Shown one piece after another: positions 39,677 through 61,396 of a stretch of DNA of 61,881 nucleotides; the first letter of the stretch is position 1; each line of letters begins with the position of its first letter. The position numbers and the translations under genes are program-made. Origin of the DNA: Nitrospirota bacterium (GTDB lineage: Bacteria > Nitrospirota > UBA9217); the NCBI GenBank assembly GCA_963751455.1, contig CAVVUN010000005.1, positions 1 through 61,881 of the forward strand, written 5' to 3'. The notes beneath the pieces were generated by a model. That model was given only the letters and a program-made list of their open reading frames with translations. It was not told the DNA's origin and did not search any database.

Positions 39677-39739
39677 ATCTTTTATCGTCCTTCGTCCATC
39701 GTGCTTCATCCATCGGTTTTTTAAACTGCGGAGGTGCGT

Positions 39740-41037
39740 ATGTACTGGCAGCCCGAATGTGAATGCATGGACAGGGAGGAGCTTGAGCAGCTCCAACTCG
39801 AGCGGCTCGAATCCACCCTGAACCGCGTGTACAGAAATGTTCCCTTTTACCGCAAGAAGTTCGATGAGCTCCGGTTCAATCCTGACGACCTCCGCTCTCT
39901 GGACGATCTTCGCAAGCTGCCGTTTACGGCCAAGAACGATCTGCGGGAAAACTACCCGTACGGCCTCTTTGCGGTGCCGCTCAGGGAAGTGGTGCGCGTC
40001 CACGCTTCATCGGGGACGACCGGCATGTTCACGGTCGTGGGCTATTCGCGGAACGATATCAAGACGTGGTCAAACCTGGTTGCGAGGGTCCTGGCAGCCG
40101 GGGGAATAACCAAGGACGACGTTATTCAGATCTCCTTTAATTACGGTCTTTTTACAGGCGCCTTCGGTCTTCACTACGGCGCGGAACGTCTCGGCGCCTC
40201 GGTGATACCCATCTCGAGTGGAAATACCAAGCGGCAGATCAAGATCATGCAGGATTTCAAGACAACCGCGCTCGTCGGTACCCCGAGCTATGCAATGCTG
40301 ATCGCGGACACCATGATGGAGATGGGCATCAATCCGAATTCGTTGTCGCTCAAATACGGCCTTTTCGGGGCTGAGCCGTGGTCGGATGCGATGCGCAAGG
40401 AAGTCGAAAACAAGCTGAAGATTATTGCCACAGACAACTACGGTCTTTCAGAAGTGATGGGCCCGGTGTGGCAGGTGAATGCCTCGAGCGGAACGGCCTG
40501 CACATCGCCGAAGACCACTTTTACGCGGAAGTGATCAACCCGGAGACGCTCGAACCGGTAAAGCGCGGGGAAGTGGGAGAACTGGTGATCACGACCCTGA
40601 CGAAGGAAGCGTTCCCGGTAATCCGCTACAGGACCCGCGATCTTACGCGCGTGATAGAAGACCAGTGCCCGTGCGGCCGCACCATGCGCCGCATGACGCG
40701 GGTCTTCGGCAGGACGGACGACATGCTGATCATCCGGGGAGTGAATGTCTTTCCGCAGCAGATCGAAACCGTGCTCTTTGAAGTCGATGGTGTCGCTCCT
40801 CATTACCAGATAGTGATTGACCGTAAGGGCGCGCTTGACGAGACGACCGTGAACGTTGAGGTCTCTGAATCGATGTTTTTTGACGAAATGAAAAAGCAAA
40901 GCGAGCTCAGGGAAACGATCAAGAAGCGGCTCGCTTCCGAGCTCGGCATCTCGGTTGATGTGAAACTGGTTGAAAAGAAAACACTGGAGCGGTTTGAAGG
41001 AAAAGCCAAGCGGGTCATAGATAATAGAAAATTTTAA
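39740..41037 (+). CDS. paaK: Phenylacetate-CoA ligase family, split by a 1-bp deletion near 40462
   Basis: [17 protein letters not shown] and [11 protein letters not shown], continuing in another frame as GVAGEC...IRYRTRD...[16 protein letters not shown]...GKAKRVID. Confidence 0.9.
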
Positions 41038-42020: not shown

Positions 42021-42248
42021 CTATTTTTCAAGAGCTTCCATGAACTCTTCAATCGTCATTCCTGCTCTTGCTATAAGGCTTCTCAGTGTACCGCGGGCTA
42101 CCGTTGGATGATTTGGGACGGACAATGTCGCGATGTGTCCTGTTTTAGTGAGGATTATATGACTGCCGCGCTGGCGGGCAACTTCCCAGCCAAGAGTCTC
42201 GAGCGTTTTCACAACTTCCCGAGGTCTCAGGACCGGGATAGGCGGCAT
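42021..42248 (-). CDS. hicA: HicA toxin
   Basis: RQRGSHIIL...SVPNH...GTLRSLI. The ATG overlaps the hicB stop (TAATG). Confidence 0.9.
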   Translation of the reverse strand: MPPIPVLRPREVVKTLETLGWEVARQRGSHIILTKTGHIATLSVPNHPTVARGTLRSLIARAGMTIEEFMEALEK

Positions 42249-42454
42249 TAAACGAGAACCTCGACTTGGCGGGTTGTGACGGTCAATGGCATTCCCTTCT
42301 CCGCCCTTACCTCCAAACACTCCTTTATGGCTTCCTGGATATTCTTCTCTGCTTCTTGCTCGGTTGCGCCCTGGCTGACACAGCCAGGAATAGATGGACA
42401 TTCGGCTATATACATCCCGTCTTCATCCTGAGTTATTGTTATAACGAACTTCAT
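42248..42454 (-). CDS. hicB: HicB antitoxin (short, no DNA-binding domain)
   Basis: DEDG.YIAECPSIPGCVSQG.T..EA..NI.EAI with an AGGAGG RBS. Confidence 0.9.
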   Translation of the reverse strand: MKFVITITQDEDGMYIAECPSIPGCVSQGATEQEAEKNIQEAIKECLEVRAEKGMPLTVTTRQVEVLV

Positions 42455-42511
42455 AACCGGGTTTCCTCCTTTGTATAATTTCATTCTATCCGAATACTGT
42501 CGCAAAATCAA

Positions 42512-43150
42512 TCACTGAAAAAAGTTGGCCCGTTCCGTCGGTCTTTCATCCTGATCCGGTTTACTCGTCTCCACATAGGCAATGCGGTCCGCCTGTATCT
42601 CATAGGCCCGTTCAATTAATCCGTTCGGATCTGCATCCTGGAACATATCAGGATGCAGCTTTAATTGCGCTATCAAGCGTTGCTCCAGGTCAGCTTGCGT
42701 GTCGGTCATCTCGTAATCTATAATGTGCCGAATCGCGATTTGCCGACCGCGAAGATGCCTGCAAACCAATATGGACCTATGGCATGTCATCGGGTCTTTT
42801 TCCGCGCACATCAGCGCAAGAACATATTTTTTTTCCAGCCCGAGCCTGATCCGCTCCAATCCATTCTTGAACAACTGTGAGTCCGCTATCTTTTGATGGA
42901 CTGCCTTCCCATCCACATAACACGAACGGTCTTTCGGCCTCGCTCCCAATTCTTCACCGAGGAAAACATAGTCAATTCCATGGGACTTAAGGAATGTATT
43001 GAGTGGTTCCCGATTGAACTGTGGATTCCGGCTGCTATACGGTACAGATCGCACGTCACACAATGCGCTTATTTTGTACTGTTTGAGAAGGACCGTAAAA
43101 TTATTTATTGATCGGTCCGATTAGCCGATAGTGAAAAGCATGTTACTCAT
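42512..43150 (-). pseudogene. DUF488 family protein with an in-frame TAA at codon 10
   Basis: Reads MSNMLFTIG*SDRS...DVRSVPYS...LMCAEKDP..CHR. The stop at 43121-43123 falls on the conserved TIG(H/Y)S position. Confidence 0.8.
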
Positions 43151-43364
43151 ATGATGCAAAGCTCAAGGCACAGCTTTCACCTACAAATTACAACGGAGCT
43201 CGGTGAAAGTTACTGATTATTGATTGAAATGTGGCATGAACGCTCTGCTTGAAAGAGCAATTTTCGCTCTTCTTCTCGTGAATGTTAATAATCCTGTTAT
43301 TCACAGAAATAACTGGAGAGACCTCTCGACGAATCAAAAGCAAACATGCAACCTCTCGCTGAAA

Positions 43365-43760
43365 TTAACTATCGTTTCCATCTTTATGCCTTCGTCTGAC
43401 TTGACCTAGCCCATACCCACCTAGGCCGACGCTAATTATAGTGGCTACAAGTTTAATTAGCTCCATAGCTGATGAATCTTTACCCTGATATATTAAAAAG
43501 CCAGCAAGTATCAAAACAAAAACGGCAATAATGGTTCCACTTATTAGCAAATTTCTATCACGTCTGTTATCATGTACGAAAATCCTTTCTTCAAAGTCAT
43601 ACGACTGTTTCTCCATATCTTTTTGCCCCTCGATATACGAAGTAACAAGTGGACCAGCTGCTTTCAATAGGTCTTCTAATGTTGGCTGCATTTGCGCGGT
43701 TTTATGAGGAGAACCATGTACCACGACCTCATTTTCTTCTATTTGATTATCTGAATTCAT
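43365..43760 (-). CDS. Small two-TM membrane protein
   Basis: AGGAGG RBS, hydrophilic N-terminus and two C-terminal hydrophobic helices. Confidence 0.7.
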   Translation of the reverse strand: MNSDNQIEENEVVVHGSPHKTAQMQPTLEDLLKAAGPLVTSYIEGQKDMEKQSYDFEERIFVHDNRRDRNLLISGTIIAVFVLILAGFLIYQGKDSSAMELIKLVATIISVGLGGYGLGQVRRRHKDGNDS

Positions 43761-43796
43761 TTTTTCCTCCTAGTATAGATTGATCTATGCTAAATT

Positions 43797-44786
43797 TTAC
43801 ACTTCACATAAGAACCAATATTCGTCCTTATCAAAAGTCGCATTCTTTGTGAAGTCGTGAGAGTACCTCGAGTTCTCGATGAAAACTTGTATTTTTTCTC
43901 CGACCGGGTATATATGGATATTGCCGCATTGATTGTTCGTAAAATAGAGAAGATTTCGATAGTTCCATGCGGAATAAGCCAAGTGGTCGCTTGGTGCACA
44001 TCCAAAAAATGTAACGCGCGGGTTAACTGTGTCGAGAAAAGAGTAGTTTCGTTCAGATTTCCGTCCATGATGTGGCGCAAAAAGGACTGCAACATTTGTG
44101 ACTAAATCTTTGTGTTTGTCAAGTATGTATTCCCAAGTTTTATCGTTCGAATCTCCTGCGAATATAATTCGGCCTGCCGAACTGCGATAAACGATAACAT
44201 ATGACGCATCGTTAATATCTCCGCCATCATTAGCAATCCTTATAAGTTCCTCATTAGGCGACACAATGGAGATGTAATCTCCGTTTCCCTCTTTTTTATC
44301 GTTGTCGGCATTCCAATATATATTTGTGTCACCCGCGCGCGGCGTAATTACGCTTGTATTTTCGACTTTTCCCGCAATAATGTTCTGATAGAAATCCCAG
44401 TCGTCTTCACTATATGGGCATCCATTATTGAAATCAGGTTTCTCTCTCCGTATGCCACAATCCCAAAAATGCTTAACCGTTATCTTTCGAAAAAGATTCT
44501 TGATTCCATCCATATGATCCATATCGGGATGAGTCAAAATGAATCGCCAAATCGAAAAGATTCCTTTGCTCTCAAGGTAATCTATCGGATTAGTTGGGTA
44601 AGCGCACATGTTATAATTACCTAAAGGTTTCTGTGCTCGGCGCTCCTCGAACTCTGCCTTTGATATCTGTTCAAAATTTCCACAGCAAACGTCAATCATA
44701 GTGATACGATTACTGGAGCGTTCGAGAAGAAAACAGTCGCCCTCCTGGACATTCAGACAGTGTATTTTGGGATCAGGCATTGTCAT
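43797..44786 (-). CDS. ComEC/Rec2-type metallo-beta-lactamase-fold hydrolase (putative nuclease)
   Basis: LNVQEGDC, THPDMDHMDG, NDASYV, FAGDS and PHHG motifs. Confidence 0.88.
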   Translation of the reverse strand: MTMPDPKIHCLNVQEGDCFLLERSSNRITMIDVCCGNFEQISKAEFEERRAQKPLGNYNMCAYPTNPIDYLESKGIFSIWRFILTHPDMDHMDGIKNLFRKITVKHFWDCGIRREKPDFNNGCPYSEDDWDFYQNIIAGKVENTSVITPRAGDTNIYWNADNDKKEGNGDYISIVSPNEELIRIANDGGDINDASYVIVYRSSAGRIIFAGDSNDKTWEYILDKHKDLVTNVAVLFAPHHGRKSERNYSFLDTVNPRVTFFGCAPSDHLAYSAWNYRNLLYFTNNQCGNIHIYPVGEKIQVFIENSRYSHDFTKNATFDKDEYWFLCEV

Positions 44787-45234
44787 CCTCCTTTGCCGAC
44801 GTACGGCTCTTCTTGATGCCCCATGTTACTTGTGCAATGTCTTCTACTTTATCAATAAACTTATCGACATTAAGCCCGGCAATGAATGCAAGGGCATAGA
44901 AAGCGAGATTTGTTGGGCTGTCAGACTGTTTTGCTTCAAGAACGATTAACCCAGCTTTCAAAAATAAGCTGCTTATTACCCCGGTTATTATGCTCACAAT
45001 CGGTCGAATGAAGTACCACGGCAGCCACTTTTCACTCCATCGATCATAAACGCAGGCATTCAGATAGACTCCTCTAAGGCAGTAAGTTATTCCACCGATA
45101 CCGCCGCTAATTCCACAATAGAAAGCGAGCCTCAGTGAATCTGATGGGAGATCAATTTTTCCAAGGAGCAACAGCAAGCCGACAACGCAGTAGCTAGACA
45201 AGAGTAGAATTAAATATAAAAAAACACGTTTCAT
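44773..45234 (-). CDS. Membrane protein with 3-4 TM helices
   Basis: Hydrophobic segments with 'GGIGG', 'WYFIRPIVS' and 'AFIAGL'. Its stop overlaps the MBL start; AAGGTGAGG RBS. Confidence 0.75.
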   Translation of the reverse strand: MKRVFLYLILLLSSYCVVGLLLLLGKIDLPSDSLRLAFYCGISGGIGGITYCLRGVYLNACVYDRWSEKWLPWYFIRPIVSIITGVISSLFLKAGLIVLEAKQSDSPTNLAFYALAFIAGLNVDKFIDKVEDIAQVTWGIKKSRTSAKEDDNA

Positions 45235-45372
45235 ATGTAGATCCTCACCTTTGCGGTATTTAAGGTCCTCGTAATGAATTAGAAATGGATATTTTGCAAA
45301 AAATAGAAAATATATCTTAGCCGAATGTTCCTCGGTTAGGGCTGTTGTTATTGACCGCGTGACTTCCTCATT

Positions 45373-45879
45373 TCAAGCCCCTTCTGCTTTACAACTGTAA
45401 AGATATATTTCCGCTATCTCTTGGATTATGATTTTCCCTTCGTTTGTTGATGTATAGTTCCACACGGCGATTTTCCACTTCCTCTTTCCGGATAATATTG
45501 CCATTACCGGGTTCCGTGCCCTAGCACTTTTGCAACGCGCTATATTATCAAGTGTTGCAATGTCCCTTATGCTGAGCGACCCGAATCCGTCAGGGTGTGT
45601 ATGCCAATCTCCCAAATATGTGTGCCGGCGCCCTGACTCTTTATAGAGTCGAGCCACCTCCTGATCATGCCAAGTATAATCGGGAGTAAATGTCCCTACC
45701 TCATGTTTTGCCGACTTACCAGGCCCTATTACATCAACAATAACTACCTCGGTTTCCATAAAATATCCAATCAGGATGCCGCCTGTCTCAAGGGGATGCC
45801 TCAGATTGGCTTCCTGGAGCATCTTCTCTGCTGCTTCTATTTTGATCCAAACTTTTTTCTTTATTGATGGTTTTTGCAT
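45373..45879 (-). CDS. JAB/JAMM (Mov34/MPN+) metallo-isopeptidase
   Basis: ETGGILIG and YLGDWHTHP-x5-S-x2-D JAMM motif. Overlaps the 3' end of the E1 gene. Confidence 0.93.
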   Translation of the reverse strand: MQKPSIKKKVWIKIEAAEKMLQEANLRHPLETGGILIGYFMETEVVIVDVIGPGKSAKHEVGTFTPDYTWHDQEVARLYKESGRRHTYLGDWHTHPDGFGSLSIRDIATLDNIARCKSARARNPVMAILSGKRKWKIAVWNYTSTNEGKIIIQEIAEIYLYSCKAEGA

Positions 45880-47671
45880 GCAGGATGTCTAACAATCGAT
45901 TGGGTTATTCTTTCTATCGGGATCGCGTTGCCGGATGCATCCCGAAGATTGATAATTTCAATGTCCCACGGTATCCGAGGATACCCTCCCTGAATCCCTT
46001 CCATAACTGTTGAAATAGCCATTCGAACGCCGGCCAGGGATGTTTGAAGAGCGTCAAAGTTATTGCCGGTAAAAGTTGGGTCGCTGCAGCCCGCAGGGAT
46101 TACCTCGCCGACCGTCGTCTCATCTGCATTTGGAACAGGAATCTTTTTCTCCTCTATAGAGTGCCGTAGACAGTGACAACAGCCGTCCGATTCTCCATGT
46201 CTAAACCGCGCGACCATTCCTCCCCACGTACCGTTTGTTGCTGAAATAAATATATAAGGGATCCCCTTTCTCTGGCCATATCTGCCAAAAAATTCTGAAC
46301 GCCTTCATCCGCCGTAGCGTCAACGATGACATCAGCTTCGTTCAACATCTGCTCAACAATATCGTTTAAGGTGAGCGACACTTGCTCTTTACCATACAGA
46401 GATTGATCTCCTATTCTGGCATCATAACCAATCACCTTTGTATAGGGATAGTTCTTATTTAAAAGTTCCATGACCGCAATTGTTTTTCGTTTCCCCACTG
46501 CAGACAAGCCTATTATCCATCGTACTCCGTTACCCGCCGAGACCGTATCACAGTCAAGGATTCTCAGCTCACCGATGCCCGCTTTAGCAAATTCAATGGC
46601 ACAGGGAGATCCTATACAACCAAGACCAAACAGTGCGATTTTTTTCTCTGCCAAACCCCTCAGTTCCGGTACTCTACTGCTCATATCATCCTTTCCGGCT
46701 CTTTCTCCCTTGATAAAGAAAGGCTGTGTCTTTATTGTTGTAATTTTTTTTCCGCTCTTGATCGCCCTTTCCTGCCTAAAAATCCATCGAGCTATAAATA
46801 TCCAGGAGAGCGTTCCATCACTATCTCGATGAGACGTTTCATCTTCATATACGGACGCCACAACGTCTATCTTGAGATCTATCTCCCCTGGCACATCTGT
46901 TTTAATATTCCGTGCTGGCTGGGGTATAGTAGTTAAAATTGCAGGATTTTCTTTCGCCAATTGTTCAATGTATTGTTGTGGTTCGTTGCTTACGATCGGC
47001 TTATCTGTATGCTGCCATCTACCTTTAACTTTATGCGGATATAGCTTTGCTATAGATGGCGCTGCTGTGTACAGAATTTTGTTATTTCGATCTTTGACCT
47101 CGATAACTGCTCCCGCAAGCACGCTATGTTTGTCTGATGCCATGAATCCGACGACGAGGGCGCCATTCGGTCCTGCAAGCTTCCATTTGCTATCAATGAT
47201 GATATATGTACCTGGCGTAAAATCCATGTACCTTTCAACAGGTTCTGGATCACGAGATTCTAATTTATAACCACAGAGCGTTTCATGCGCCAGGACCTCT
47301 TCCTTGCTCGCCAGCTGGTTTGCTATCCTGATTTGCGCGAGCTGAGAGGAGAGAACAGCTGCGGCAGTATCTTCATAATGCCATTCCTGAGCAGACGCCG
47401 TAAGTAGGCAAAGGTTCTTTTGAAACAGTTGTTGATGGTACCGGAGGTTGAGTTCCGGAGCAACAGCCATGAATCGAAAATATGGATAATGGTCAGGGTA
47501 AACGATTTCAAGGTAAATCATCTCCGACCCTATCGGGAATCTCCCTTTAAGAACAACGACGCCTCTTTCAAATAGGTTTCTATCCACTTTGAAAGAGGCG
47601 CCTAATTTCGCGAGTGCTTTGAGCTCAAACTTGAGTCGCCCGCGATGGCGTTTCCACCATTTTTCTGCCAT
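45861..47671 (-). CDS. E2(UBC-like)-E1(ThiF) fusion protein, ~600 aa, split by a 1-bp deletion near 46263-46269
   Basis: N-terminal 'YPDHYPY...HQ...NLCLL...W' (E2 Cys). ThiF part has GLGCIGS, LDCDTV..GN.VR, GKRK and IVDATAD. After the frameshift it reads GIPYIFISAT.G.WGG, CCHC, PAGCSDPTF (E1 Cys) and HPAC. Confidence 0.88.
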
Positions 47672-47693
47672 TTCCTTTTTCTCCCACTTTGTG

Positions 47694-47828
47694 TTATCCT
47701 ACTTGCCTGTGATGTGATGGCTTAGGCGGTGATGCCGGACCAGGCGGCACCGGCGGATGATGCGGATGCTCCGGGTGTTCGGGATGGCCTGGCCGCTTTT
47801 CGTCATCCTTCTTATTTTCCTGACTCAT
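47694..47828 (-). CDS. Unannotated 44-aa His/Pro-rich peptide ending in Gly: MSQENKKDDEKRPGHPEHPEHPHHPPVPPGPASPPKPSHHRQVG
   Basis: Hand-translated from ATG 47828 to TAA 47694. AAAGGAGGGG RBS, first ORF after a consensus promoter, 22 nt before the E2-E1 start. Confidence 0.8.
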   Translation of the reverse strand: MSQENKKDDEKRPGHPEHPEHPHHPPVPPGPASPPKPSHHRQVG

Positions 47829-47952
47829 AGTTGTTGGCCCCTCCTTTCATCGGGATTGCTAACTACGAACGTAGAGTTAGCACTTATTACATGAGCTTTT
47901 TAGATATCATAAGTTAAATTGATCTTTTAAATACGTCAGTCAAACTTTCATT

Positions 47953-47982
47953 ATTATAATTCAAGAGCCTATGGTTTGTCAA
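47953..47982 (-). promoter_or_regulatory. Consensus sigma70 promoter of the peptide/E2-E1/JAB operon
   Basis: TTGACA-N18-TATAAT on the minus strand. Confidence 0.8.
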
Positions 47983-47992
47983 GATAAAGTAC

Positions 47993-48007
47993 TTGAATTA
48001 AATTCAA
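47993..48007. promoter_or_regulatory. Palindromic candidate operator
   Basis: TTGAATT-a-AATTCAA, 10 bp upstream of the -35 box. Confidence 0.45.
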
Positions 48008-48088
48008 TAAAATCAATGCTATACATTTTCCTAAAAAAATAATTAATAAGGTCATTTAAATTATTTAAAAAAACATAGTCATTTAAAT

Positions 48089-48115
48089 TTGACAAATAGG
48101 ATTTAGTGGTATAAT
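48089..48115 (+). promoter_or_regulatory. sigma70 promoter of the HTH/peptidase pair
   Basis: TTGACA-N15-TATAAT with an extended -10 (TGgTATAAT). Preceded by the direct repeat GTCATTTAAATT at 48051 and 48078. Confidence 0.65.
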
Positions 48116-48163
48116 ATTTCCAACTTAGAAACTCTCCTACCGATTCTTTCTGGAATTTCTCTC

Positions 48164-48505
48164 ATGCTTTGGGTTTACGGCATAATAGGCAAAAAAATAT
48201 ACGACCAGCGAAAGGCCTCAGGAAAAAGCCAAGAAGAATTGGGGAAGATTCTAGATCTTACCAGGACTTCAATCGCAAATTTCGAAGCAGGCACGCAGGC
48301 AGTTTCAATAAGTGACCTTTATAAAATTGCCTTATTTTTTAACAAAGACATAAATGACTTTTTACCAACTACCGACGAGGTCAAAAATTTACAAAAAAAG
48401 CCAGAAGAAAAGGTAATAGAAGATGGTTCTTTGGATGAGACAACAAGATCTGAGCTATCTGCATTTCTTCAAAGGATAAAAGAAGAGAAGAGTAAAAATA
48501 GTTAG
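48164..48505 (+). CDS. XRE/Cro-C1 HTH transcriptional regulator
   Basis: IGKKI...RK..GKSQEELG..L.LTRTSIANFEAG.Q. Confidence 0.9.
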   Translation: MLWVYGIIGKKIYDQRKASGKSQEELGKILDLTRTSIANFEAGTQAVSISDLYKIALFFNKDINDFLPTTDEVKNLQKKPEEKVIEDGSLDETTRSELSAFLQRIKEEKSKNS

Positions 48506-48518
48506 GAAAGGAGCAAAT

Positions 48519-49016
48519 ATGCGCGGCTCAAGTTCAGCCAAAAGGCAAGCTAGAAGAATTAGAGCTAAGCTGGAGAGCAATCAGAGAGATATAGACATTA
48601 AGCAGGTAGCAGAATCACAGGGTATTCGAGTTTATGAAGAGGATTTTAGTGGCGATACTATCTCCGGACTTATGCTGAGAGATGAAAAGGGTTACATTAT
48701 TGCCGTAAATAAGGGACACGCAGATACTAGAAAGAGATTTACAATTGCTCATGAGCTCGGCCACTTCTTATTACATAAACAAGAAAACTTGCACTATGAT
48801 CTTCAGCAGAATGGTAAAGAAGTTTTCTTTAGAGCTGATGGCATCATAAGCTCTCATGAAAGAGAAGCTAACCATTTTGCTGCCGAACTTCTCATGCCAG
48901 AAGATATGATTCGTGAAGACTTCCAGGATAATCCAGACATAAACAAGTTAGCTAACATATATAAAGTAAGTGAATCAGCGATGATGTATAGACTATCTAA
49001 TTTGAACCTTGTGTAG
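48519..49016 (+). CDS. ImmA/IrrE family Zn metallopeptidase
   Basis: RKRFTIAHELGH and EREANHFAAELLMP. Confidence 0.93.
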   Translation: MRGSSSAKRQARRIRAKLESNQRDIDIKQVAESQGIRVYEEDFSGDTISGLMLRDEKGYIIAVNKGHADTRKRFTIAHELGHFLLHKQENLHYDLQQNGKEVFFRADGIISSHEREANHFAAELLMPEDMIREDFQDNPDINKLANIYKVSESAMMYRLSNLNLV

Positions 49017-49340
49017 TTTCGGATAACTGATACTCGCCTGGCAATGAAACAAAAAGAAAGGCTTAGAGAATTTTTAACTCTAAGCCTTTTCATTTTCCTT
49101 AAATACGCCGCTTAACACTGTCTTCTCAGGGTGCAGGTCTATACTGTTTACCTTTCCCCCGAGTGGGCTCTCGGGTACACAACTGAGTGATCGCCGATCA
49201 TCTTGGATGCACTTCCCGTTCGAGATGGGAAACTTCTCTCCCGATTTTCTATCAAGATTAAAACCCGCGGCTAGAGACAAATATTGGGGTCGGGTCGAAG
49301 TCCCCTGGGTCAAATCTCATTTATCCAAAACGAAGCAGAA

Positions 49341-49464
49341 GACCACGTGGCGTTAGCCCGTGGTTGAATGCGTCCCTCTTGTTTCCCTCCTCCTTCAGGG
49401 GGAGTTAGGAGGGGGTGCTTCTTTTGAATTCAAGTGCCACGGGCGTAAGCCCGTGGGTATCTAC
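49341..49464. mobile_element. Possible non-autonomous IS200/IS605-like or REP-like miniature element
   Basis: Two related hairpins, ccacg(t)ggcgttagcccgtgg and ccacgggcgtaagcccgtgg, flank a ccctcctccttcagggggag hairpin. No transposase. Confidence 0.4.
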
Positions 49465-49843
49465 TGACAAGGAGTAACCATATTGCGTTTGCCCTTCGCT
49501 TGCCTACTGCCACTCGGTACTTTGTCCTGCTCTCTTTCGCTATAAATCCGATGCCGTATTCAGTAAAAACATTACACGCTTTGAAAACGTCAGGCAAAAC
49601 GATGGATATTCCTTCGCACCGCCTGGTTTGGACACGTATCTCAACTCCATAAAGCTGCGCCAATAAGAGCCTGCATGACCTGCACAGCATCATATCCAAA
49701 AAGCCGTTGTAAATATACCGCAAAGCGGTATCGACTTTTTCCCCACTTGGTCCCGAGTTAGTCCCTGACTCTAGCCGTGACTCTGGCCGTGAGCGCCCCC
49801 TCTCCCTCCACCTCTCTCGCAAGGGGCGAGGAAACCGGGTGCA

Positions 49844-50206
49844 TTATGCATTCTCCTCGATGATATGTTTCCCTTTTTCGGTCAGCCGGTATTTCTGTAG
49901 ACGGCTGTTTGGCTTGTCCGGAATGGTATATTCAACCAGTTCTTGGGTAAGCAACTCACCCACAGTTTTTTTCAAAACTCCGGTCTTGCTTCTCAGCCCC
50001 AGGGTATTCACCAATTCGTTCATGGAAAGCGGTCCTTGCCGCAGGGCGCGCATGATTTGATTCGACTGGGCCTCTGACCGGGCTCCCTGCTCGACTTGAA
50101 CAACTGCTTCAGAAACGGCTTTACGCCAAAGCGTCAGGATGAAATATCCGGAATCTATACGGAACTCGGGCTGCCGTATGCCTGCGGTCCGGCAGCGTTC
50201 GAGCAT
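49844..50206 (-). pseudogene. C-terminal fragment of a RecG-C/Fic-associated winged-helix protein
   Basis: 'EYTIPDKPNSRLQKYRLTEKG' terminal motif; N-terminal domains are absent. Confidence 0.6.
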
Positions 50207-50220
50207 ATCGACAGTTCACC

Positions 50221-51416
50221 TCAGCGAGCGACCCATTCCGCCGCCGGAGTAGCAGGAACTTTTCCAGGGGGATGCCGTCTTCGCCGACCAACAGTTTTCT
50301 CTTCGGCTTGAAGGCTTTTTCAAAGGCGTCCGTCCCCGGAAGCCCCTCCTTGAGAGCTCCGCTCTTGATCTCAATGGCGACAACGGTCTTGCCGGATGTT
50401 AGGACGAAATCCACCTCCCGGCTTCTTTCGCGCCAATAAAAAATCTCGACGCCCATTCCCGCGGCGCTATTGATCAGATGGGCGCCGACCGCCGATTCCA
50501 CCAGCCTGCCCCAAGTCTCCCGGTCCTCCCGGGCTTCATCGAAGGCGAGCCGCGCTTGCGCGCTGATGAGCGCCGTGTTCAATACCTGAAGCTTGGGGCT
50601 CGACGCCCGCTCGCGGACCCGATGCGCGGCGAACTTGTGCAGGCCGGTCAGCATGCCGGCGCCGGCAAGCAGCTCCAGGTAGTGGCCAGGGTCGTCGTAT
50701 TGCCGGCGTCCTGGAGCTGCCCGATCATCTTCTGATAAGAAAGGATCTGGCCGGAAAATGAGCAGCCCAGTTGAAAAAGACGCCTGAGCAGCGCGGGTTT
50801 GTCAACCCGTGTCAGGAGCAGAATGTCGCGGGAAAGAGTCGTCTCGATGAGCGAATCGATTATGTAGCGCGACCAGCGCTGCCGGTCGGCGATCAGGTCC
50901 GCCGCTCCGGGATAGCGCGCCGAAATAGATGAAACGGTCAAGGTCCCACCCGAAGGCTTCACGCATCTCGGCGTAGGACCAGTGGACCACGGGAATGGTC
51001 TCGAACCTGCCTGCAAGGCTTTCGGTCAGCCCCCGCTGAATGAGGAGCGGCGCCGAACCCAGGAGAACGACCTTGAGGGATATTTTTCTGCGGGTATCGC
51101 TGTCCCAGAGCCTTTTTACCACGTCTGACCATCCGGTCACCTTCTGGACCTCGTCCAGAACAAGGAGCGCCTCGCCCTTGCCCGCGGTCTCCGCTGCCAG
51201 CGACCTTCCCGTTTCCCACTGCTGTTCGATCCATGCCCGGCTCTGAAGGGTTGGTTCATCCGCTGAGGCATAATGGACCGGGACCCGGGTCTCGTCAGCC
51301 ATCTGGCGCACCATCGTGGTCTTCCCCGTTTGCCTCGGCCCCGCGAGGACCTGGATGAACCGGCGCGGCTCCTGCACTCTCTTCACCAGCGTATGATACA
51401 TGGGGCGATGATACAT
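50221..51416 (-). pseudogene. AAA+ ATPase with DUF4143 domain, three frameshifts
   Basis: GPRQTGKTT, LDEVQK, ESLAGRF, (GGYP), GRLVESAVG and EVDFV..IEIKS. Frame breaks near 50917, 50684 and 50251. Confidence 0.82.
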
Positions 51417-51487
51417 CCCTGTCCGATCCTCCAGAATGAACGAAACCGACCACCTTACAAATTACTCAATACGTTGAGTTATTTTAC

Positions 51488-51727
51488 TCACAACATTACG
51501 CAATGTAAAGCACGGGCTTCCAACATACCCGCGAGTTTCAGGCAAGAAGCGATGCGACTCTGTTTGAATGAGTTTCGGCAACAATGGGGTTCAACATTCT
51601 CCGCTTGCAATCTGACAAATTCAGATTCGTCTTTCTTGGTTAAAATGATAAGATCCTTAAGCTCTTCCTTGGCCAGCGTCGATGAATTGTCCACGAAACC
51701 GTCAATGTAATCCGTGAACTTGCTCAT
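51488..51727 (-). pseudogene. Probably truncated hypothetical protein
   Basis: AGGAG RBS and a plausible helical N-terminus; the C-terminus looks like non-coding read-through. Confidence 0.35.
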
Positions 51728-51738
51728 GGAGGCTCCTG

Positions 51739-52272
51739 TTATTTATCTTTGTTTTTCAAGTTTTCAGTCGCTATGGCAATATCGAAGGCCTGCCCGAGAA
51801 CTCTTGCCGCCTCGTTAAAATATTTTGGACCAAGTGTCCCGTTCCCATTTGCCCGGTATTCCGCTATGTCTTCGTCCAGCAATTTCCGGATCTTATCAAA
51901 CTGCTCCATTGTTTTACTGTTTGCGATACCTTTCCCTTTTTCGTACTCGTACGCTTTGCGAAATTTCAGCGTGATGTCAGCTATAGCTGTCTCATTCTCG
52001 GTAAAGGACTTTGTATCAAATGTCTCAACAAGCATCATGGCTTCGGCTTTAAGATCAGTCAGGTTTCTATAAGTAGTAACGTCGTGGTAGGTAATGGGGA
52101 TGGCACAACTTATCAGCCACGTGCTCAAGGGCAACGTGACAACGAGCGAGAAAATATAACGCGGTAAAGGATTATGGATTTGTGCCAAGTGACGCTGATT
52201 CCGTAAGGGGATACTCTTTTTCTGGATGGATTCTAAATCAACCATAATCCTCCATGAGTGATTTGGATGCAA
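51739..52272 (-). CDS. Hypothetical lipoprotein
   Basis: Hydrophobic stretch ending LISC followed by a helical domain. Start uncertain. Confidence 0.6.
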   Translation of the reverse strand: MHPNHSWRIMVDLESIQKKSIPLRNQRHLAQIHNPLPRYIFSLVVTLPLSTWLISCAIPITYHDVTTYRNLTDLKAEAMMLVETFDTKSFTENETAIADITLKFRKAYEYEKGKGIANSKTMEQFDKIRKLLDEDIAEYRANGNGTLGPKYFNEAARVLGQAFDIAIATENLKNKDK

Positions 52273-52338
52273 ATAGTTGAATTAATGAAAAGATTACTAC
52301 AAAGGGTTTCAAGTCCAGAAAAGAGAGACGGGGTGAGA

Positions 52339-52797
52339 TTAAGCAACTGAATCAGAATTACAACGCGAAATGTGGAGGTTTCGAGGAGATACGACCACCG
52401 CAAGTTTCAGGAAGAAATTAATGCTCTTCTCAAATTTTGTCGGGTGTTCGTCTCCTGCCTGTTTCTCTCGGTAATACTGTGTTTGGATCATTTGCTTGGC
52501 GATCGGAAGACGATTTTTGATTGTGCTCCAGACGAGATTATAATCGACTCCAAAGTAACCGTGAATCAACCGATCTCTCATTCCGGACATTTCTCTCCAG
52601 GGAACGTCCGGATACCGCTGTTTGACCGTATCAGGAATATTTCTTGATGCCTCACCGATGATCTCAAATTTCCTTATCACGGCGCTTGCTGTTTTATCGT
52701 CCTGCTGGAAATCGTCAAAGGACATCCTCTCAATAAAACGCTCAATGCTCTCGATCGCAGCCAGAACATCGGCAAGGTAGAGTTTATGATCTCTCAT
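52339..52797 (-). CDS. hepT: HepT/DUF86 HEPN ribonuclease toxin
   Basis: EIIGEA, PW..M.GMRDRLIHGYF (RX4H). Confidence 0.9.
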   Translation of the reverse strand: MRDHKLYLADVLAAIESIERFIERMSFDDFQQDDKTASAVIRKFEIIGEASRNIPDTVKQRYPDVPWREMSGMRDRLIHGYFGVDYNLVWSTIKNRLPIAKQMIQTQYYREKQAGDEHPTKFEKSINFFLKLAVVVSPRNLHISRCNSDSVA

Positions 52798-53084
52798 GCA
52801 GGAACTACCTCTTTCAGTACTGTATCTCTGATCTCCTTCCTCAAGGCTCTCTTCGGGACAACGTCAACCTTCGACCCGAGCTGCTCCTCGAGAAATAATC
52901 CCAGACCGACGAGATCGAAAAGATCTGCATCTTCTTCGAAATCGACAAGGACATCGATATCGCTTGACTGCTTCTGTTCGCCTCTCACGACAGATCCGAA
53001 AACGCCGATCTCGTGCACCTTGTACTTCTTCATCTCATTATGCAAATTTTTTATGATTTTAATTATGTCTTCTTTGTTTTTCAT
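52794..53084 (-). CDS. mntA: MntA-type minimal nucleotidyltransferase antitoxin
   Basis: GVFGSVVRGE...SDIDVLV...KVDVV, with an ATGA overlap onto hepT. Confidence 0.9.
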   Translation of the reverse strand: MKNKEDIIKIIKNLHNEMKKYKVHEIGVFGSVVRGEQKQSSDIDVLVDFEEDADLFDLVGLGLFLEEQLGSKVDVVPKRALRKEIRDTVLKEVVPA

Positions 53085-53437
53085 AGGAAGCTTCAATAAG
53101 GAACTCGTCAATCGTCTTTAATACAATTTTATACAAATCTTACGTCAAAATCAATCGCCACCATGCGGCTGCCAGGATTTCTCCTCCTGATGAGTCGAGA
53201 ATAACGCATTTTGAAGGAAGGGGCAAGGGAAATTGTGTAGCCGATGGGGTGACAGTGAGACGACAGAGAAGCGAGTGAGAGTCGACGAGAGACAGCCCGA
53301 GCGACAGAGAGGCGAGGAGGCAGCCGCGCTGATCCGAGCTTTGGATGCATCTATTACGGAATCTTCGCTCTCCTTATCACCCTTATAATAAATCTCGATA
53401 AACTCTATTTTGTCCTCTTCCTCGTGACTAGGCGTAG

Positions 53438-61106: not shown

Positions 61107-61396
61107 GCTCCGATAATTGTTTTACTGGTATTTTCAGAGAACACGCTTGTGAGGATCATTAACAATTAGCCAACCGAACCAGCCATGGTTCGGGGAACTG
61201 TAACCGGTCGCCTGCATGGGATCAAATAATCTGGTTAAAGGGGCAAGATGTGCGATACCACGCAGGGGTAATACAATGTCGAAAGGGCCCCGACCAATCT
61301 CTCGAAGGCATCGAATAACCGGGCAGGTTATGCGACCAAAGTTTTAACAAGTTTAATTATAGGCGTCTGCATTTTTTTGTCAAGAAGATTAATACT

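Follow-up and report, generated by a model that had tools for sequence, protein, structure and literature searches.

A foldless proline-rich peptide as the likely modifier of a Cap2-like E2-E1 conjugation cassette

A 44-residue proline-rich peptide encoded in the 61,881 nt window (the whole stretch of DNA analyzed here) is likely the foldless modifier of a three-gene cassette, which further comprises a Cap2-like E2-E1 enzyme and a Cap3-like JAB peptidase, and it would be joined via Gly44 to lysines of target proteins. The cassette would work like the conjugation of type II CBASS, yet it is not a CBASS, Bil, Bub or 6A-MBL system. The preliminary description of this DNA had proposed a non-β-grasp, disordered tag for an E1/E2 cascade, and the placement of an extended peptide of this kind as modifier of E1, E2 and JAB is supported; it was silent on the frameshift in the E2-E1 gene, on the kinship of the enzyme with Cap2, and on fusions of the peptide tail to CD-NTases, TIR and other domains. 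The peptide gene and its signals are located as follows:

47694..47828, minus strand: gene of the 44-residue Pro/His-rich peptide, a predicted conjugation tag with a free C-terminal Gly44
47697..47738, minus strand: conserved 14-residue tail (position frequencies, codon use)
47840..47847, minus strand: Shine-Dalgarno sequence AAGGAGG, with an 11 nt spacer before the ATG
47953..47982, minus strand: σ70 promoter, TTGACA-18-TATAAT, 12/12 consensus

The ORF and its translation, as first reported, were found to be exact on the minus strand (47828-47694), and the perfect promoter claimed ahead of the gene was confirmed at 12 of 12 consensus positions. Perfect TTGACA/TATAAT sites occur twice in the window and never in 100 shuffles; the other one, TTGACA-16-TATAAT, lies at 61356-61383 on the minus strand. 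As for the ribosome binding site, which had been called strong, AAGGAGG is a good match but its spacing is slightly long. What had been described as a polyproline tract consists of PP pairs only: Pro accounts for 12 of the 44 residues, and the peptide contains no PPP and no aromatic residue. The contrast of a GC-rich ORF with AT-rich flanks holds upstream (57% vs 28%) but not for the downstream gene, which has 46% GC, and the excess is due to the Pro/His/Gly codons. The 44-residue peptide had no match in Pfam, PADLOC or NCBIfam and no usable match in the ESM Atlas, and none of five peptide sequences looked up was present in a collection of 15 billion proteins. The lack of profile and Atlas matches is no sign of novelty.

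An intact cassette with a 47-residue peptide and adjoining phage-type genes (locus L121) is present in G011, a genome of the same family as that of the window. The AlphaFold2 model of the L121 peptide alone had a pTM of 0.28, and neither helix nor strand was assigned. Comparison of the window with L121 over the last 33 codons gives 15 synonymous against 4 non-synonymous changes; of the 22 differences, 18 fall at third positions. Judged from sequence comparison, the 44-residue ORF is a real gene and the peptide is under purifying selection.

Related loci were gathered by E2-E1 alignment, giving 40 genome loci and the best 80 of 229 metagenome matches, and those with a detectable E2 start formed, together with the window, 89 lineages under 90% identity. 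In each lineage, the upstream ORF was picked by the highest Pro content in the C-terminal 25 residues, irrespective of the terminal motif. Six of the 89 lineages were left out, five of which were ended by the contig end (two of these still have the motif), while the sixth, L031, has the tail motif with a 15-residue extension. All 83 scorable lineages, drawn from the 40 genome loci, the best 80 of 229 metagenome matches and the window, carry the tail PPxPP[RK]PPxxR[PEQ]VG or a close variant; the window tail departs from this consensus at positions -13 and -7. The tails end in VG (76), VA (3), YG (3) or AG (1), and Arg occupies position -4 in 93%. Conservation of the terminal Gly, on which the earlier reading had been made to depend, thus survived the check (Gly in 80/83, Ala in 3/83). 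Extensions of 1-4 residues after the fixed Gly, found in 17/83 lineages, resemble those of BilA pre-proteins. Among the 13,506 other ORFs of the same loci, only 14 end in RxV[GA]. In 78/83 lineages, no more than 18 nt separate the peptide stop from the estimated start of E2-E1, the JAB gene comes next after E2-E1 in 79 of the 81 lineages with sufficient sequence, and no further conserved gene was found among the related loci. These counts are valid for this E2-E1 clade only, because the loci were collected by motifs of that clade.

A short ORF so close to the next gene could also be a leader peptide or translational coupler, in which a Pro-rich stretch stalls ribosomes in an EF-P-dependent manner or the VG codons form the Shine-Dalgarno sequence of E2-E1. 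PP is present in all 71 stand-alone peptides, stop and next start are at most a few bases apart in the majority of loci, and the Gly of the tail is most often encoded by GGA (35/80). However, across lineages the tail draws on the full codon sets for Arg (six), Val (four) and Gly (four), and SD-like codon pairs are found in only 17/83. Moreover, 12 lineages with the next start at a distance of 13-77 nt retain the RxVG/KxYG end, and the tail also terminates proteins of 116-339 residues. The full range of synonymous codons and the retention of the motif ahead of distant starts place the constraint on the protein rather than on an overlapping Shine-Dalgarno sequence. We consider the leader or coupler highly improbable, although ribosome stalling at the peptide ORF could still tune expression.

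The stand-alone peptides (n = 71) are 31-93 residues long (median 48) with 36% Pro, and only the tail is fixed within these sequences. The metal binding suggested earlier is not a core feature because the His content is not conserved, 16 of the 71 having 0-1 His. Obligatory Lys chains were likewise ruled out as a core feature, as five of the 71 peptides lack Lys. We also rejected an in-frame peptide-E2 fusion, since none of 12 long homologues carries the tail at its N-terminus. In L030 (395-676), a 93-residue peptide consists of two tandem tag units with an internal RPVG and a terminal REVGR, like a poly-ubiquitin precursor. On a divergent branch of Bacillota (L037, L039 and L040), the peptide has a K-[KR]-Y-G terminus, and the gap of 56-77 nt behind it includes a short inverted repeat. 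In L021, L023, L051 and L103, a same-strand gene of the DUF2188 type lies ahead of the peptide, and its cluster occurs in nine lineages.

The 40 genome loci cover 13 named phyla, and the cassette is sparse in the host phylum (2 of 401 genomes, the window's genome included). Among plasmids, it was found in 13 of 72,556 at a coverage of at least 80%. The peptide was present in all six opened plasmid loci of the clade, but its gene is listed in only one of six plasmid records checked (that gene table is incomplete). Two more distant plasmid matches belong to an MBL-type operon and a CBASS operon, both with other tails.

The two enzymes of the cassette are encoded downstream of the peptide:

45861..47671, minus strand: Cap2-like E2-linker-E1 gene of ~600 residues, frameshifted into 505- and 118-residue ORFs, intact in L121
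47408..47410, minus strand: E2 catalytic Cys88 (NLCL), invariant in 145/145 sequences
46086..46088, minus strand: predicted E1 catalytic Cys (PAGC; C528 in L121), invariant in 145/145 sequences and located 3′ of the frameshift
45373..45879, minus strand: Cap3-like JAB/JAMM peptidase with E31, H93, H95, S103 and D106 intact

The E2-E1 gene of the window matches the profiles of ThiF (E 1e-15) and PADLOC E1-E2 (E 2e-29), and its relatives carry the E2 domain Prok-E2_B. Between 144 and 145 of 145 sequences keep E2 His79, Cys88, Gly350, Gly353, Arg383, Lys395, Cys528 and the Zn ligands Cys497, Cys500 and Cys598, and 76 of 78 JABs have the JAMM motif. The AlphaFold2 model of the L121 enzyme had a pLDDT of 95.6. 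Its top PDB match in a fold search was Cap2 (7TO3; E 2.6e-24, TM 0.61, 15% identity), followed by Atg7 (4GSK at rank 3) and BubCD, with MccB/PaaA among the weaker E1-domain matches.

The resemblance to MccB/PaaA bears on the alternative raised in the preliminary description, a RiPP-like precursor. In this case E1 would convert the C-terminus to an adenylate, thiocarboxylate or amide, the modified peptide being the end product; a short precursor-like gene does head the operon. Yet E2 His/Cys and E1 Cys are retained in 145/145 sequences and the JAB in 79/81, the related loci yielded no conserved exporter, immunity, tailoring or other modifying gene, and the same tail terminates folded enzymes (CD-NTases and TIR domains). 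A RiPP-like product is thus very unlikely.

Atg8 is conjugated to phosphatidylethanolamine via Atg7 and Atg3, and the same activation chemistry could deliver the peptide to a non-protein acceptor, be it a lipid amine, nucleotide, nucleic acid or small metabolite. The likeness of the enzyme to Atg7 and the lack of a conserved E3 or target gene would fit such an acceptor, as would the unidentified 'target molecule' mentioned in the available text of the Cap2 preprint (bioRxiv 2022.03.31.486616). In contrast, B. cereus Cap2 forms isopeptide bonds to PspA lysines according to the available part of PMC11153139, and the cassette has no conserved lipid-binding or membrane gene. We regard a non-protein acceptor as unlikely and favor target lysines.

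The break in the window's E2-E1 gene is read through by its homologues, and the second frame is 65% identical to intact L121, so that one base is missing at the G run 46263-46266. We lean toward an assembly error rather than a true break. Other split genes on the contig encode a phenylacetate-CoA ligase-like protein (39734-41037) and an AAA_14/DUF4143 protein (50121-51416), as judged by paralogues that are in frame on other contigs, and across the genome a frameshift affects 2 of 102 conserved orthologues. The window's copy of the cassette may be dead, as the E1 Cys and Zn site lie beyond the frameshift. In nine lineages (L001, L011, L015, L058, L068, L077, L079, L080 and L102), E2-linker and E1 are two ORFs split near residue 283-320, which unlike the break in the window is probably a natural split.

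The preliminary description had named the E1 adenylation pocket as the place to look for the terminal Gly, and a complex of the peptide with the E1 dimer was modelled for the L121 pair in place of the window's own. The model comprised linker-E1 in two copies, the cognate peptide and ATP, and was run together with three controls. The complex score was 0.65 vs 0.00 for the best control; of 157 solved complexes, 116 reach the mark for this score, as do 2 of 215 mismatched pairs. At least 32% of the contacts were common to the runs, and the partner pLDDT was at least 36. The placed part of the peptide is its last five residues, 43-47, which contact E1 residues 350-353, 451-455, 476-479 and 532-533. 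Gly47 lies on the GxGxxG loop, and the tail also docks on the DATA motif and the strand 476-479, in agreement with the proposed location. The score possibly reflects memory because similar complexes have been solved (Cap2-CdnD, ThiF-ThiS and MoeB-MoaD). The model supports the E1 nucleotide pocket as the predicted site, as distinct from binding in a cell.

The tail is not confined to the peptide. In the same lineage set, which includes the best 80 of 229 metagenome matches, 71 of 83 lineages are peptide-only, and 12 carry the tail on larger proteins of 116-339 residues, namely SMODS cyclases (3), ThsB-type TIR (2), tandem DUF1508 (2), DUF3892 (3) and an unknown domain (2). The three tailed cyclases sit with SAVED, patatin or HNH-SAVED effectors in bona fide CBASS loci; their mutual identity is 21-26%, and their best PADLOC models differ. 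Fusions are nested among peptide-only lineages in a FastTree phylogeny of 81 rows, which leaves out 18 lineages with split, partial or truncated enzymes. A 28-row IQ-TREE agrees, and the AU test gave p 0.039 against a single cyclase clade, the tested group having been chosen after the first tree. Repeated exchange of cargo on the tail is well supported by these phylogenies, whereas peptide-first polarity is only moderately supported, because the group was tested post hoc and the root rests on three long outgroup branches. The cassette may represent, as a tentative wider reading, a widespread unannotated conjugation system whose ancestral modifier was a portable foldless tail, which alone would be a minimal tag and, joined to unrelated domains, would have repeatedly captured defence proteins, rebuilding the architecture of type II CBASS more than once.

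The tail on cyclases in three CBASS loci of the clade also suggests the reverse history, in which the peptide is a relic, the leftover tail of a deleted CD-NTase, or a decoy, that is, a sacrificial substrate occupying the ligase; the peptide locus of L054 adjoins a separate cyclase operon. This alternative is at odds with the peptide-only majority across the tree (71/83) with fusions nested inside, with the low identity and different PADLOC models of the tailed cyclases, and with purifying selection on the peptide. In addition, G011 is without a SMODS match at 98% completeness, and the sole cyclase found in the window's genome has another tail and its own E2. A relic or decoy is accordingly quite improbable, and a modifier in its own right remains our preferred reading. 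As to a phage-borne decoy, the degenerate tail pattern had one match in viral contigs, in a phage structural region without an E2-E1 ORF, which was read as chance and rejected; no E2-E1 relative was confirmed among 123 viral candidates.

Several fusion loci have features of their own. In L098 (4981-5996), L099 and L101 (5346-5987), a ThsB/PDC-M50B TIR protein with an RxVG tail is followed by E2-E1 and JAB, with PDC-M50A upstream in L098; by gene content, these loci are a Thoeris-like system coupled to a Cap2-type ligase. The tail of L097 (5640-5990) and L115 (932-1285) is on a 116-residue protein of no known family with several Cys, and an HNH gene lies upstream in L097. In L054 (8311-12272), the peptide cassette is followed by an operon of two SMODS cyclases, a 180-residue ORF and a second ThiF protein.

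The divergently oriented neighbours and the genes beyond the JAB are as follows:

48164..48505, plus strand: divergent CapH-like HTH repressor (PADLOC capH E 2.6e-8; Pfam HTH_3)
48519..49016, plus strand: divergent CapP/ImmA-like metallopeptidase of 165 residues (PADLOC capP E 1.7e-33, positions 4-153 of 242; Pfam Peptidase_M78)
48051-48062 and 48078-48089, no strand assigned: two identical 12 nt repeats, a candidate operator adjoining a divergent promoter-like site at 48089-48117
43365..45234, minus strand: non-conserved accessory genes for a 153-residue hydrophobic protein, a 329-residue MBL-fold protein and a 131-residue membrane protein

A divergent regulator of the HTH/ImmA, WYL or LexA-like type is found in 27 of 73 lineages. 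The accessory genes are absent after the JAB gene in L121, and a search of the 120 related loci (40 from genomes, the others being the best 80 of 229 metagenome matches) found no homologue of the 153- or 329-residue protein. The MBL-fold protein matches PADLOC PDC-M48B and has no Gly tail; as it has no tail and is not conserved, it was ruled out as substrate or effector. A hairpin between the JAB and 153-residue genes, considered as a terminator, folds no better than shuffles (z +0.93).

The cassette shares with type II CBASS Cap2/Cap3 (E. cloacae Cap2-CdnD, 7TO3; B. cereus) the enzyme architecture, fold, catalytic residues and JAB partner, the order of substrate, E2-E1 and JAB, a disordered tail ending in Gly/Ala, and CapH/CapP-like control. 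An E2-linker-E1 with both Cys is present in L121 and the 145 sequences, the window copy being frameshifted, and the JAB has the JAMM motif but scores 55 against the 200-bit cut-off of NCBIfam Cap3. Unlike type II CBASS, 71 of 83 lineages are without a cyclase or effector, the substrate gene being the tail alone. The window locus has neither a CD-NTase in the operon nor a cyclic-nucleotide-sensing effector; SAVED, STING, patatin and TIR had no match by Pfam and PADLOC among the neighbours of the peptide, and the hydrophobic 153-residue protein, which is not conserved, has no family assignment. The window's genome has a single SMODS match, located on another contig; the cyclase ends in a different tail and has an E2 of its own. 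This separate CBASS (L153, G000:C6:270132-273527) consists of a patatin, a 393-residue cyclase and a 143-residue E2-like ORF.

From the available descriptions of Bil (BilABCD) and Bub, the cassette is similar to them in its small modifier with predicted Gly activation, presumed JAB trimming, lack of a separate effector, DUF1508 modifier fusions, and CapH/CapP or WYL regulators, and it likewise has a C-terminal Gly, presumably the reactive residue, at times behind a short extension (Gly 80/83, extension 17/83). Their modifier is a β-grasp protein, whereas that of the cassette is foldless and its enzyme is Cap2-like with two Cys. Bub also lacks the catalytic Cys and includes BubE (DUF6527), while the Cys of the cassette are invariant and no fourth gene is conserved. 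The 6A-MBL type (operon class 6a) likewise combines E2-E1 with JAB, and the window has an MBL-fold gene. However, the JAB of the window is separate with no E2-E1-JAB fusion, the NCBIfam scores fall far short of the cut-offs (59 vs 320 and 30 vs 220 bits), and the MBL gene, which in 6A-MBL lies upstream and bears a tail, is located downstream, with no Gly tail and no homologue in the 120 related loci. Class 6b is defined by a pol-β nucleotidyltransferase, and its row in Table 1 of Iyer et al., 2006 (PMC1779556) names Arthrobacter sp. and the NGR234a plasmid, with no mention of a peptide in section 14 and the table rows read. Both hosts also harbor this clade (L125 and L126), and from these rows we infer that their class 6b genes are those of the clade.

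Pup is a short disordered tag joined via its C-terminus by PafA, a glutamine-synthetase-like ligase, and removed by the depupylase Dop. The cassette peptide would be a similarly short, disordered, C-terminally attached tag, but it goes with E1, E2 and JAB. The cassette also differs from the MccB/PaaA-type RiPP pathways in that its E1 has an E2 domain and no conserved exporter was found.

The cassette would operate in four steps. Under stress, the CapP/ImmA-like peptidase would cut the CapH-like repressor and free the strong promoter, by analogy with the stress induction by CapH/CapP in the available text of bioRxiv 2022.04.27.489752. The E1 dimer would then take the R-x-V-G end in its nucleotide pocket, as predicted by the model, and adenylate Gly44 as Cap2 does. 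Held in thioester linkage, the tag would move from the catalytic Cys of E1 to Cys88 of E2 and on to a target amine; the residues are invariant, and the available parts of bioRxiv 2022.03.31.486616 and PMC11153139 describe adenylation, E1-to-E2 thioester transfer, lysine ligation and JAB reversal for Cap2/Cap3, the CBASS cyclase being the known Cap2 substrate. Finally, the JAB would trim extensions after the Gly, in the way BilC, a JAB, trims BilA pre-proteins in the available text of bioRxiv 2023.09.26.559546, and, as in Cap2/Cap3, take the tag off targets. Because no effector gene is conserved, the output of the cassette is likely the attachment as such, which would most plausibly hinder phage or stress-damaged assemblies sterically, as Bil does. 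Our best guess is steric tagging in the course of a phage infection; as no target or effector gene is conserved, an anti-phage role would rest on context, namely the divergent regulators and the neighbouring toxin-antitoxin and defence-like genes.

The E1/E2 cascades described in the available literature attach a β-grasp protein or the tail of a folded enzyme, and within its CBASS, Bil and Bub part we found no description of a peptide-only substrate; subscription papers and bioRxiv supplements, which are outside this scope, could mention the clade. If our reading is true, an unfolded peptide of 31-93 residues (median 48) would be the whole modifier, the tail alone would be the recognition unit, and ubiquitin-style tagging would be performed by a bare peptide rather than a folded protein. 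As the simplest such system, the cassette would help to find the targets and the purpose of Cap2-type ligation, still an open question for most CBASS, and the peptide would offer a short, portable ligation tag accompanied by a protease of its own. The peptide gene is mostly missed by annotation, and the clade has cultured hosts, with intact orthologues in S. fredii NGR234, Arthrobacter FB24 and a Sphingobium plasmid.

The surroundings of the cassette (window 42021-53111) resemble a defence island, with HicA/HicB, DUF488 (PDC-M45B), MBL-fold (PDC-M48B), a Fic-like C-terminal fragment and a HepT/MNT pair.
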